DNA from: an uncultured Acidimicrobiales bacterium
GTDB taxonomy: Bacteria > Actinomycetota > Acidimicrobiia > Acidimicrobiales > JANYDT01
NCBI GenBank assembly: GCA_963763885.1
Contig: CAVXQD010000007.1
Coordinates: 125,677 to 189,676 of the forward strand
Length of the DNA stretch: 64,000 nt
Reading direction: 5' to 3'
Shown: piece after piece, positions 3,927 through 8,330 of the stretch
Layout of the letters: each line of letters starts with the position of its first letter
Position numbering within the stretch: position 1 is the stretch's first letter
The notes under the pieces: generated by a model
What the model was told of the DNA's origin: nothing
What the model saw: the letters and a program-made list of their open reading frames with translations, nothing else
The model's database searches: none
Made by a program: the position numbers and the translations under genes

Positions 3927-4448
3927 TGGGGAAGAAGCCAGCACTGGGGAAGAGAACGGAACAAGCCGCCAAGGCGACCGCAAACGGGCACCGACCGCCC
4001 GCCTGGTACCGGCCCCGTTGCGTTTGCTGCGGACATCGAAAAGGTGGTTGAGCACGCCGAGGCTGCTTACGCCGTCTTGCACGGTGGCGCCGACATTTCA
4101 CTTGCCTCGTTGCACGTGAAGAAGAACAGCTCGTTCGCCCTCGGCGCTGACGACGCCGAACTGGTGTGCCTCGTCATCAAAGGCGATGGGTACCTGATTC
4201 CATCCCCGTCAGCGTCCGATCTTGAAAGCGACGAGGAACGCGAGGACGAGGAGGACGCAGCCGACGACGAAGACGACGAAGACGACGAAGCCACGAAGGG
4301 CAAAGTCGGCAAAGCGAGTCGAACCCGTTTACGAGAGGGTCGACTTATCGTCATCACGGGGCCGGTAGTGCTTCGGACCAAGCGCCACGGACTGCGACTT
4401 CTTGTCATTTCCCACATCACCCACAGTTTGCTTCCAGCGGTGCGCTGA
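3926..4448 (+). CDS. Hypothetical cupin-like protein with an acidic insertion; apparent 1-nt frameshift near 3998
   Basis: ATG3926 frame (MGKKPALGKRTEQAAKATANGHRPP) joins the 4044 frame (PGTGPVAFAADIEKVVEHAE...ELVCLVIKGDGYL...LREGRLIVI) if one C is removed at CCGCCCGCC. Confidence 0.45.
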
Positions 4449-4449
4449 C

Positions 4450-5295
4450 ATGGTGAGTCCAGAATCCACGCAACACGCGGCCAGCATCCCAAACATGCCG
4501 CTCACACTCACCGTGCCGGCAGACGGGTTGACGGCCAACCATCGGTCCCTTGACGCCGCTGCTGCGATCGCCGCTCAGCTCGATCTTCCCATCCGAGTTA
4601 GTTCGCTTGTCGATGAGTCAACAACGCTTGGCTCGCGGCAGCGCCTGCTGCGCCAACTCACCGATTCCATCCCCGTAGATCTGAACGTAAGTACAACTAT
4701 TGATCATGGGTCGGACGCAACAGCGTTCATCCTCGATCATGTGGCGGACCACTCCACGCTGGTGATTCTGTCGGGCGGAACAACCGGTGTAGGTCTCCCA
4801 GGTTCCGTGACGCACGAGGTTCTTCGGTTTGCGTCTTCACCCGTGATGTTCACTGGCCCGTGCTGCCTGGAATGGGAGGGACCGGTCCGGCGCATTCTCG
4901 TTCCGATTGACGGATCGCGGCTTGCCGAAAAGTGCTTTCCGATTGCTGCGGCATGGGCCCTCGCCACCAGCAGCCCGGTCCAGTTTGTGACTGTGGTGGA
5001 TCCGGCGGTTTCACGCTCCGCACCGATCGCAGAGCACGACGTGGTGGAGTCCGGCTTCGTGGCGGCTACGGCGCGGGAGTTTCACTCGCAGTATGGAGTG
5101 CAGGCCACCGCCGACGTATTGCACGCCAGAATGTCCCGGCGGGCAGAGGCTATTTCTGATTGTGCTGGAGACGAACCAGGGACAATCGTATGTATGTCTA
5201 GTAATGGCTCGGCGCACAACCCGCACGCGTTGGCTACAACCACCACAAGGGTTGTGCACCTGTCTCCAGCGCCGGTGATTGTGGTCAGGTCTTAA
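4450..5295 (+). CDS. Universal stress protein (degenerate tandem Usp)
   Basis: GSVTHEVLRFASSPVMF, RRILVPIDGSRLAE and TTTRVVHLSPAPVIVVR. Confidence 0.75.
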   Translation: MVSPESTQHAASIPNMPLTLTVPADGLTANHRSLDAAAAIAAQLDLPIRVSSLVDESTTLGSRQRLLRQLTDSIPVDLNVSTTIDHGSDATAFILDHVADHSTLVILSGGTTGVGLPGSVTHEVLRFASSPVMFTGPCCLEWEGPVRRILVPIDGSRLAEKCFPIAAAWALATSSPVQFVTVVDPAVSRSAPIAEHDVVESGFVAATAREFHSQYGVQATADVLHARMSRRAEAISDCAGDEPGTIVCMSSNGSAHNPHALATTTTRVVHLSPAPVIVVRS

Positions 5296-5341
5296 GTACC
5301 AGGCCCGGGCCTACGCCCACCGACGCTACGGAGCGACACGG

Positions 5342-5821
5342 CTAGAGGAACTGTTGCAGGTCCTTCTCGATGTCTTCTGGCGTGACGGTTGGTTCGTAGC
5401 GTCGGAGCACCGAACCATCGCGGCCAACGAGGAACTTGGTGAAGTTCCACACCACTTCTGGCGTGCCATCTTCTTTTGGCTTCTCAGCCGTAAGGAACCG
5501 GTACAGATCGCAGGCGGCTTCGCCGTTGACTTCTACCTTGGAGAACAGCGGGAACGTCACGCCGTAGTTGGTAGTGGCGAACTCGAGAATTTCTTCGTCG
5601 GTGCCTGGTTCCTGTGCCCCGAACTGGTTGCAGGGGAAACCGAGAACGGCGAAACCCTTGTCAGCAGTGGTGTCATGAAGCGTACGCAGACCTGCGTACT
5701 GAGGGGTAAGCCCTCAACGGCTCGCGACGTTTACCACCAGACACATGGTGTCTGCGAAGCGCTGAAACGAGACCTGCTCGCCGGTGATGGATGTCATGGT
5801 TAGATCGTGAAAAGTCGACAT
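5342..5821 (-). CDS. gpx: Glutathione peroxidase, selenocysteine-containing (UGA at 5714-5716)
   Basis: Reading through TGA gives 159 aa: MSTFHD...LVVNVASR-U-GLTPQY...LGFPCNQFGAQEPG...WNFTKFLVGRDG. The TGA sits at the catalytic Cys/Sec position of the NVAS.(C/U)G motif. Confidence 0.9.
5682..5699 (-). promoter_or_regulatory. Bacterial SECIS-like hairpin
   Basis: On the coding strand GTACGCA-GGTC-TGCGTAC: perfect 7-bp stem and G-first loop 21 nt after the UGA, consistent with bacterial SECIS geometry. Confidence 0.75.
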
Positions 5822-5891
5822 GGCTACGAACGTAGCCGGGCGAGAGGCGCAACAACGCAACGCAACGTTTCGGCCTGCGCGACCATGGTGG

Positions 5892-6824
5892 ATGGTCCAA
5901 ACGCGTCGCTTTCGTTTCGCAGTGCAACCACTCTCGAAGTCGGTCAACATTTTGCAGAATCACGACGAGCTGGTTCGGGTCGCTCGAATCACCGAAGACC
6001 TTGGTTATGAGGAGCTGTACATCCCGGACCATTTCGGTTCGGTCGACCCGTTTATCCCGGCGTGTGTCGCAGCTGAGGCTACGTCAACGTTGCGCGTCGG
6101 CACGCTGGTGCTCAACAACGAGTTCCATCATCCGGCGATGCTTGCGCGTACCGCAGCCACCCTCGACAAGTTGTCCGGAGGGAGGTTCGTGCTGGGTTGT
6201 GGGACGGGGTACGCCGCAAATGAGCACGACGCCACTGGCATAGAACTCCGCGCACCGAAAGACCGAGTCACTCGGTTCGGTGAATGCATGGCTGCCATCC
6301 GCTTGCTGCTTGATGAAGGCGCTGCGCACGTCGAGGGTGAACACGTAACCATGCATATCGATCGGCTTGGGGTCCGGCCGTCGCAGGCGCGGGTCCCACT
6401 GCTTATCGGCGGGCATGGTCGGCGTGTCGTTTCAATCGCGGGTCAGCATTGCGACATCTACCAGTTCACCGGTTTGGAACACGGTCCTCGAGGCGAGATC
6501 CAGCCAAACGGTTTCGACATGGCCTCGCTCGCCCAACGGGCAACGTGGCTGGCCGAGGCCGCTGGGGACCGGATAGACCACATCGAACGATCGTCACTTG
6601 TCCAAGCTGCAGAAATCGGACCCTCCATCGACTACCACCACACTGCGCAGGAGTTCGAGCTAGAGGTGGAGACCGTCTTGGAGAGCCCGTTCATTCTCCA
6701 AGGGTCCCAAGCTCAGATCGCCGAGAAACTCCACCGCTGCCGCGAAGAGTTGGGCATCAGCCACATCGTCGTGCGTGACGCCGAAGCGTTCGCCCCAATC
6801 GTGGCCCAACTCGCCGGCTGCTGA
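5892..6824 (+). CDS. LLM-class F420-dependent oxidoreductase
   Basis: GYEELYIPDH...DPF...ATSTLRVGTLVLNNEFHHPAMLAR...LSGGRFVLGCGTG...PLLIGG. ATG5892 chosen because the track's 5820 start overlaps gpx. Confidence 0.85.
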   Translation: MVQTRRFRFAVQPLSKSVNILQNHDELVRVARITEDLGYEELYIPDHFGSVDPFIPACVAAEATSTLRVGTLVLNNEFHHPAMLARTAATLDKLSGGRFVLGCGTGYAANEHDATGIELRAPKDRVTRFGECMAAIRLLLDEGAAHVEGEHVTMHIDRLGVRPSQARVPLLIGGHGRRVVSIAGQHCDIYQFTGLEHGPRGEIQPNGFDMASLAQRATWLAEAAGDRIDHIERSSLVQAAEIGPSIDYHHTAQEFELEVETVLESPFILQGSQAQIAEKLHRCREELGISHIVVRDAEAFAPIVAQLAGC

Positions 6825-7124: not shown

Positions 7125-8330
7125 GTGGACGCGGCGTTGGCGGACATACGGGCTGGGGTGGCGGAAGGGTTCGCCAAGTTGATGGTCCACGTCACTGAAC
7201 AGCCGTTGTCTCCCGACGATGTTCTTGCGGTGCGCCGGTTGGTTGAGACTGCCGAGTCTGTATGTACGCGTGCTGTTTCGAAGGTGTCTGAAACAACCAG
7301 TTTTCGGGATCTTGGGTTTCGGGATGTGAGCGCGTGGTTGGCTGCCAGGTCGGGCGCACGCCGGACTGAAGGACATGTCCGGTGTGCCCAGGAGAAGCTG
7401 CTCGCAGATTTCGAGCTTGTTCGTGAAGCGGCCGCGGATGGGAAGTTCAGTCAGACTCATTTGCGGTGTTTGGCGGGTGCGGTCACTGCGAAACGGTTCG
7501 AGCTAGCAAAGCGTGACGAGCAGGTTTTTGTGAACGCGGCTGCGATGTTGGACGCTTCGTTGTTTGCTCAGTTGGTGCAACGGTGGGTGTCGTTAGCTGA
7601 CGACGAACTGTGTGACCCTGCCCAACCTGGTCGCGGTGACGATTCAGCTGGTCGACGGTTGCAGTTGACCCGCCTGTTTAATGGGATGTACCGGTTGAAT
7701 GGTGTGCTGGACCCAGTCGCTGGTGAAATTGTTGAATCGGCGTTAGCTGCGGGTATGCCAAAACCGGGACCGGATGAAACCCGGACTCCGGGGCAACGTC
7801 GTGCGGACGCGTTGACCGATGTTTGCCAAACATTTCTTGCGAACACTGACCGGCCCTTTGTTGGGAATGAACGTCCGAATGTGAACGTCGTGTTCCACGC
7901 AGCGGATGGTTCAGCTCACACCACGGGAGGTTGGTTCCTACGGAACTGGCAACTCTCCCAAATCTTGTGTGACGCGACCGTCACTGCGGCTGCTGCGACG
8001 ATGAATGGTGTCGTGTTCGACGTGGGCACCCCGACGAGTGCAATCCCGGCAAGGAACCGGAAAGCGGTGATGATCCGGGACAGGGGGTGCCGGTTCGGTG
8101 GTTGTTCCCAACCCGCACGATGGTGTGAGGTGCATCACATCCGGGAACGAGAACATGGTGGGACACACGAGTTGCCGAATCTGGTTGCTTTGTGTACATA
8201 CCATCACCGTGAAGTACATCGCAAAGGCATCAAGCTCACCTGGGAAGACGCCACCCTGGTCGGGACGTTCCCGAACGGTGTGATGGTCCACGGGCCACCA
8301 CACCCCAACACCCTCCCAGCCCTCTTCTAA
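7125..8330 (+). CDS. DUF222-domain HNH endonuclease (13E12-repeat family)
   Basis: LNGVLDPVAGE...RTPGQRRADAL (DUF222) and RDRGCRFGGC...CEVHHI...GGTHELPNLVALCTYHH (HNH). Confidence 0.85.
   Translation: MDAALADIRAGVAEGFAKLMVHVTEQPLSPDDVLAVRRLVETAESVCTRAVSKVSETTSFRDLGFRDVSAWLAARSGARRTEGHVRCAQEKLLADFELVREAAADGKFSQTHLRCLAGAVTAKRFELAKRDEQVFVNAAAMLDASLFAQLVQRWVSLADDELCDPAQPGRGDDSAGRRLQLTRLFNGMYRLNGVLDPVAGEIVESALAAGMPKPGPDETRTPGQRRADALTDVCQTFLANTDRPFVGNERPNVNVVFHAADGSAHTTGGWFLRNWQLSQILCDATVTAAAATMNGVVFDVGTPTSAIPARNRKAVMIRDRGCRFGGCSQPARWCEVHHIREREHGGTHELPNLVALCTYHHREVHRKGIKLTWEDATLVGTFPNGVMVHGPPHPNTLPALF

Follow-up and report, generated by a model that had tools for sequence, protein, structure and literature searches.

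On the minus strand of the window (the whole stretch of 64,000 nucleotides of uncultured Acidimicrobiales DNA that was analyzed), positions 5342 to 5821 encode a glutathione peroxidase (GPx) that is interrupted by an in-frame TGA. The locus raises the question of whether this is a broken gene, a sequencing artifact, or a selenoprotein gene in which UGA is decoded as selenocysteine (Sec). An earlier note on this DNA favored the last reading and pointed out that the ORF track splits the gene; the ORF list indeed gives two pieces, 5714 to 5950 and 5342 to 5560, both on the minus strand. The comparative analysis presented here makes it very probable that 5342 to 5821 is one functional selenoprotein gene of the GPx family, with a functional SECIS element and with Sec inserted at UGA codon 36.

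Reading frame, conserved UGA, and selenocysteine machinery

Translated through the TGA, the coding sequence is complete, with an ATG at 5819 to 5821, 159 codons, and a TAG stop at 5342 to 5344. The start Met (MSTFHDL...) is shared by the aligned orthologues. The product matches Pfam GSHPx (PF00255) with 136.2 bits (cut-off, 27; E value, 4e-40) over profile positions 1 to 107 of 108, and a PDB comparison places it closest to solved structures of the GPx4 type and of HYR1 (E about 1e-42). The single in-frame TGA (5714 to 5716) is codon 36, in the context LVVNVASR-U-GLTPQYAGLR, where Sec would be the peroxidatic residue of a U-G-L-T (UxxT) motif. Translation and column alignment agree with the earlier note that this TGA occupies exactly the catalytic position of an otherwise intact protein of 159 residues. 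The GPx catalytic tetrad is defined as Sec/Cys, Gln, Trp, and Asn (PMC10084747), and the window protein has it in full: Sec36, Gln70 (codon 5612 to 5614), and Trp125 and Asn126 of the WNF motif (codons 5444 to 5449). Gln70 and Trp125-Asn126 are invariant in 109 of 109 aligned sequences, a set composed of 50 TGA forms (23 from related genomes and 27 from distinct database loci) and 59 TGC/TGT forms.

Next, the conservation of the UGA was examined. A GPx orthologue with exactly one TGA is present in 23 of 61 related genomes (same genus, family, or order), at 57 to 89% identity; all 23 TGAs fall in the catalytic column of the alignment, with the reading frame maintained before and after it. Seven more distant homologues that were fetched have TGC or TGT in this column. 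When one genome per species was scanned, 28 of the best 80 matches had TGA and 52 had Cys, and the TGA forms belonged to Acidimicrobiia, Gammaproteobacteria (OM182, Azotimanducaceae, and Pseudomonadales), and Myxococcota. Sec and Cys were found to alternate in exactly the UGA36 column. The predominance of Cys among these matches is also in keeping with the statement of the earlier note that most bacterial GPx proteins use Cys, as are the GOS counts of 40 Sec versus 3,287 Cys GPx sequences (PMC2398784).

A Cys-type GPx gene inactivated by a change of TGC or TGT to TGA would also be split by ORF calling, as would a gene with a miscalled base, and a young pseudogene would show a single in-frame stop of this kind. 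However, the TGA is kept in the 23 related genomes and in 27 other distinct loci, at identities as low as 57%, with the frame, tetrad, and motifs intact on both sides of it, and a hairpin with frozen synonymous sites (described below) is confined to the TGA forms. The independent assemblies also concur on TGA: contigs assembled from public runs of separate studies (X1, X4, and X6) span 5714 to 5716 without any difference, and their nearby variants (5666 and 5681) are synonymous changes outside the stem. On the basis of the conserved TGA, the hairpin specific to TGA forms, and the concordant assemblies, pseudogene formation and sequencing error were rejected; we regard this explanation as effectively refuted and its probability as negligible.

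The host genome (4.98 Mb in 8 contigs; 61% G+C; rated 93.6% complete) was searched for the components of Sec decoding, and tRNA-Sec, selA, selB, and selD were all found. The tRNA-Sec gene, with anticodon UCA, lies on contig C7 at 1646178 to 1646273 (detected by ARAGORN and by Rfam RF01852, 63.6 bits). Profile searches returned selA (406 bits) and selB (261 bits), which are mutually adjacent, and selD (337 bits, contig C3), all above curated cut-offs. None of the three was found beside tRNA-Sec; selA and selB are 250 kb from it, and selD is not on that contig. The surroundings of tRNA-Sec (C7, 1637000 to 1656000) contain a Fic-domain gene, a Tad-type secretion cluster (Ssd/CpaE-like protein and TadA ATPase), and a DEAH helicase. 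Among the 23 relatives with a TGA-containing GPx gene, 22 have selA, the exception being a 77%-complete MAG, and none of the 12 other relatives that lack selA has such a gene. The machinery, the conserved TGA, and the hairpin all favor the earlier proposal that this organism decodes Sec and makes a Sec-GPx. The public runs that contain the sequence are freshwater, sediment, and biofilm metagenomes, and the one RNA run found contained 4% of the sampled sequence words. The public MAG "Acidimicrobiia bacterium GFS_5804" belongs to the same family as the host, and several close GPx matches carry the labels Ilumatobacteraceae or Acidimicrobiales.

Translation of UGA36 could also proceed with a residue other than Sec, in that near-cognate or suppressor decoding, or a changed code, would place Trp, Cys, or Gly at this position. 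Sec-decoding systems under selenium limitation can mis-insert other residues at UGA, and a stable structure after the UGA could also promote readthrough. However, TGA is the commonest stop of the host genome, where it ends 61% of 1,765 long ORFs, and the sole tRNA with a UCA anticodon is tRNA-Sec; code reassignment was rejected on these two grounds. Because TGA is an ordinary stop genome-wide, recoding at the GPx UGA must be local. In addition, residue 36 is the peroxidatic position, at which activity is expected with Cys or Sec only and at which homologues alternate with Cys only, the hairpin (including an apex shared with fdhF) fits a SECIS of the SelB type, and the TGA-containing GPx gene co-occurs with selA. 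Insertion of Trp, Cys, or Gly is very unlikely in light of these observations, and Sec is the expected residue at UGA36.

The stem-loop downstream of the UGA

The candidate SECIS upper stem-loop occupies 5682 to 5699 on the minus strand and consists of a 5' arm, GUACGCA (5693 to 5699), a GGUC loop (5689 to 5692), and a 3' arm, UGCGUAC (5682 to 5688). This stem-loop is presumed to be the SelB-binding site. The perfect GTACGCA/TGCGTAC stem and the GGTC loop had been described in the earlier note and were recovered here, but the 21 nt given there separate the UGA from the loop, not from the stem, which begins 14 nt after the UGA. Published constraints on bacterial SECIS (bSECIS) elements specify an apical loop of 3 to 9 nt, an upper stem of 4 to 16 bp, a G in the first two loop positions, 16 to 37 nt from the UGA to the loop, and a minimum free energy (MFE) of −7.5 kcal/mol or lower (PMC13188914). 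With its 4-nt loop beginning with GG, its 7-bp stem, its 21-nt spacing, and its energy of −8.5 kcal/mol, the GPx hairpin lies within every one of these limits.

At that energy, the 18-nt hairpin folded alone has a z score of −3.55 (1 of 200 shuffles was as good), and the 41 nt beginning at the UGA fold with −18.4 kcal/mol (z score, −3.31). The fold of a 66-nt segment around the UGA was unremarkable (z score, −0.67), a result that is uninformative in a GC-rich context. A scan of 5300 to 5900 against Rfam gave no match at E values of up to 10; since coding-region bSECIS elements are short and gene specific, this does not count against the hairpin.

The comparative evidence is decisive in indicating that the predicted hairpin is more than a chance fold. 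Codons 41 to 46 are CAG TAC GCA GGT CTG CGT in 23 of the 23 Sec forms of the order, save for one TAT; codon entropies of 1.2 to 1.9 bits are found in the same sequences at other conserved positions (Ala, Gly, Leu, Arg, and Val). From genome-wide codon frequencies, the chance of this codon set in a single sequence is about 0.002. The Cys forms encode the same Gly-Leu with GGC or GGG and with CTC, TTG, or CTT, and no hairpin folds in them. The hairpin constrains the protein as well: Ala43 and Arg46 are near-invariant in Sec forms; at these positions the Cys forms have A/E/K/T and E/Q, respectively.

Base pairing was then compared across 35 distinct Sec-form sequences, in which 98.8% of stem cells are paired, with U-A/U-G and C-G/U-G alternations. 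Two related gammaproteobacterial sequences (L067 and L077) have a double change from G-C to A-U, by which the encoded residues become Thr and Cys, and L065 has a G-U intermediate at a stem pair. In three Sec-form sequences the stem is 6 bp long and closes a CGGGUU loop. Stem changes within the order are one-sided only, and true compensation is confined to L067 and L077. Covariation in the predicted hairpin is genuine but sparse, and the frozen synonymous codons argue for the hairpin more strongly.

Beneath the upper stem, a possible lower mini-hairpin (UGAGGG-CUUAC-CCCUCA; 5700 to 5716, minus strand) appears in the MFE and centroid folds and would pair the UGA itself. This element is less well supported than the upper stem, with 84.9% of its cells paired and double changes at one pair. 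Of 21 Sec forms, 16 use CCU for Pro40 and none uses CCG, the commonest Pro codon genome-wide (37%); in Cys forms, UGC occurs with CCG, and the same pair is preserved. The codon bias at Pro40 may reflect selection for a lower helix that sequesters the UGA, or selection against CCG.

Comparison with the SECIS of Escherichia coli fdhF (read from NC_000913) showed that the two elements share the apex GCAGGUCUGC and its GGUC loop and that both lie inside the coding region at a short, fixed spacing 3' of the UGA. The UGA-to-loop spacing is 21 nt here, compared with 18 nt for fdhF. Below the apex the stems are different: the one here is a perfect 7 bp (GUAC.../...GUAC), an equivalent of the bulged U of fdhF is not evident, and the lower part is a separate mini-hairpin that contains the UGA. 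The fdhF upper stem-loop is the SelB-binding element. The identity of the apex suggests that the selenoprotein could be expressed in laboratory E. coli without re-engineering, which would be useful for biochemistry. By the established bacterial mechanism, a ribosome arriving at UGA36 would find SelB-GTP, loaded with Sec-tRNASec, on the hairpin 14 nt downstream, and SelB would deliver Sec instead of RF2 terminating translation.

The 10-mer GCAGGTCTGC has 35 scattered matches in the host genome, with an evident upstream UGA context at the GPx gene only; as a general SECIS marker for this genome it was ruled out by these scattered matches and by the differing loop at selD (GCU). The selD gene (C3, 428767 to 429708, minus strand) itself encodes a selenoprotein, with an in-frame TGA in GAG-U-ACKLG. 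This TGA is followed by the hairpin GCUCGGU-GCU-ACCGAGC, which is unlike the GPx hairpin. Because the selD and GPx loops differ, the SelB of this host would read at least two loop types.

Resolving cysteine, reductant, and catalytic cycle

A resolving Cys makes bacterial GPx-like proteins thioredoxin-dependent 2-Cys enzymes, while canonical Sec-GPx proteins are without it (PMC10084747). The corresponding residue was located by alignment with PDB 3cmi (numbering offset of 8), in which the FC of the yeast protein stands opposite FA of the window protein. The resolving-Cys position of 2-Cys GPx proteins (Cys82 of yeast HYR1/Gpx3) is occupied here by Ala82 (codon 5576 to 5578, minus strand). All 59 Cys forms have Cys at residue 82, whereas all 50 Sec forms have Ala or Val. 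Because the resolving Cys is absent, the window enzyme is most likely a "1-Sec" peroxidase of the GPx4-like kind, as judged from these alignments. In such an enzyme, the selenol would be oxidized by peroxide to a selenenic acid, and an external thiol would reduce the selenenic acid back.

Two other cysteines are enriched in the Sec forms. Cys27 is present in 56% of Sec forms versus 0% of Cys forms, and Cys104 is present in 68% of Sec forms versus 2% of Cys forms, which mostly have His. The gain of Cys27 and Cys104 parallels the loss of Cys82 in the Sec forms. Both cysteines are present in the window protein (codons 5741 to 5743 and 5510 to 5512, respectively). One of them could resolve the oxidized Sec in a two-residue, peroxiredoxin-like cycle, with the resulting selenenylsulfide reduced by thioredoxin; the distribution of the two residues is consistent with such a cycle, as is the failure to find a glutathione synthetase gene (see below). 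However, neither cysteine is universal among the 50 Sec forms (residue 104 is Ala in 12 of them, and Cys27 is missing in 22), and Sec enzymes of the GPx4 type function without a resolving Cys (PMC10084747). We consider the two-residue cycle unlikely, although it is a more serious alternative than those raised against Sec insertion, and favor the 1-Sec cycle.

To identify a possible source of the external thiol, genes of thiol biosynthesis were sought. The glutathione synthetase gene (gshB) was not found in the host genome, which at 93.6% completeness does not make its absence proof. Since gshB was not found, the reductant is probably not glutathione. A MshA-like gene (389 bits; cut-off, 462.5) and a MshC-like gene (399.5 bits; cut-off, 485.1) both score below the curated cut-offs, and a mycothiol pathway in the host is possible. 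From these genomic data, the reductant would probably be thioredoxin or a system of the mycothiol/mycoredoxin type and not glutathione.

Contig C1 encodes, at 184471 to 184971 (plus strand), a further GPx paralogue, which is of the 2-Cys type. It has the peroxidatic motif VASKCG and the resolving motif EFCSTN; about 25 residues are inserted ahead of its WNF motif, and it is also found in genomes G009 and G019. The host genome, having this paralogue, keeps Sec and Cys GPx genes side by side.

Origin of the Sec forms and relation to known enzymes

The 109 GPx sequences were used to build a maximum-likelihood tree from which the catalytic and SECIS-encoded columns had been removed. This tree needs only one Sec/Cys change, with all 50 Sec forms on one side of a branch (SH-aLRT, 98), for a sample that comprises the best matches to a Sec-form query, leaves out the Treponema denticola Gpx and other reported Sec-GPx lineages, and has many unresolved inner forks. 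Within the present sample, the alignment and tree show the predicted Sec forms to be one clade, all without the resolving Cys. The Sec side mixes three phyla, and Cys forms of the same order lie elsewhere in the tree; this mixture points to transfer of the Sec-GPx gene across phyla together with its SECIS.

These results can be joined into a single reading, which we offer tentatively and with somewhat more doubt than confidence: a single origin of Sec-GPx, in which Sec and SECIS were gained and the resolving Cys was discarded, followed by spread across phyla, with a non-glutathione peroxidase as the product in this host. At that origin, a 1-Sec cycle would have replaced a 2-Cys cycle of the thioredoxin type. 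The near-invariant 18-nt SECIS would travel with the gene, its fdhF-like apex being readable by any SelB, and the enzyme of this host would be a selenium-dependent peroxidase linked to mycothiol or thioredoxin.

The novelty implied by the earlier note was overstated, as bacterial Sec-GPx proteins are an already catalogued family. Five Sec-GPx sequences were reported from the Sargasso Sea, with the bacterial SECIS drawn in Figure 7 of that report (PMC1088965), the T. denticola Gpx was one Sec-GPx case among the genomes analyzed in 2006 (PMC1794560), and GPx with UxxT appears again among the bacterial selenoprotein families in a 2026 review (PMC13188914). With these GPx selenoproteins the window protein shares the Pfam family (PF00255), Sec at the peroxidatic position, and the U-x-x-T motif, and in both the SECIS lies in the coding region just downstream of the UGA, with a G in a small apical loop; in both, Cys homologues are far commoner. 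In contrast to the T. denticola and Sargasso Sea cases, the host here belongs to freshwater/sediment Acidimicrobiia, probably to the Ilumatobacteraceae, and the likeness described here is one of family and motif. The gene is a well-supported further bacterial UxxT GPx selenoprotein, of a kind common in freshwater/sediment Acidimicrobiia.

Among eukaryotic GPx4-type enzymes, Schistosoma GPx (2v1m) and human GPx4 (2obi), both among the nearest solved structures, resemble the window protein in being monomer sized (about 160 residues) and in having the Sec/Gln/Trp/Asn tetrad. No resolving Cys is present in the "Cys block" of either type, where 2v1m has Val and the window protein has Ala. The two differ in that the SECIS here is bacterial and lies in the coding region, whereas the eukaryotic element is in the 3' untranslated region, and in that the host here apparently has no glutathione synthetase, which makes glutathione an unlikely reductant. 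The thioredoxin-dependent 2-Cys GPx proteins (yeast HYR1/Gpx3, 3cmi; poplar GPX5, 2p5q; and bacterial GPx-like proteins [PMC10084747]) have the same fold, tetrad, and length, with an E value of about 1e-42 between the window protein and 3cmi, and oligomerization loops are absent in both; they differ from the window protein in having the resolving Cys where it has Ala82.

The general picture of bacterial selenoproteins, which has included GPx since 2004-2005, is unchanged by this gene. What changes is annotation: because the gene is split or truncated by standard ORF calling, the antioxidant repertoire and the selenoproteome of uncultured freshwater/sediment Acidimicrobiia are under-counted. 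The clean split between Sec and Cys forms, together with the loss of the resolving Cys, also offers a natural comparison of what a peroxidase gains from Sec, for which the host genome has both a 1-Sec and a 2-Cys GPx.

The genes on either side of gpx were also inspected. A universal stress protein family gene (4402 to 5295, plus strand; Usp domain at residues 162 to 296) converges on the 3' end of gpx and ends 46 nt from the gpx stop. An ORF at 4044 to 4448 (plus strand) would encode a highly acidic low-complexity run, SDEEREDEEDAADDEDDEDDEATKGK, and is overlapped by ORFs on both strands. Divergent from gpx is a luciferase-like monooxygenase gene (5820 to 6824, plus strand; Pfam Bac_luciferase, 153 bits). 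The earliest ATG available to it, at 5820, shares 2 nt with the gpx ATG on the other strand, which makes a start further downstream probable. A search for promoters and terminators across 5150 to 6050 found nothing, including any sigma-70-like promoter between these two genes. A gene encoding a DUF222 and HNH endonuclease protein, a type common in actinobacteria, follows at 7125 to 8330 (plus strand) and may be a sign that the DNA near gpx is mobile or variable.
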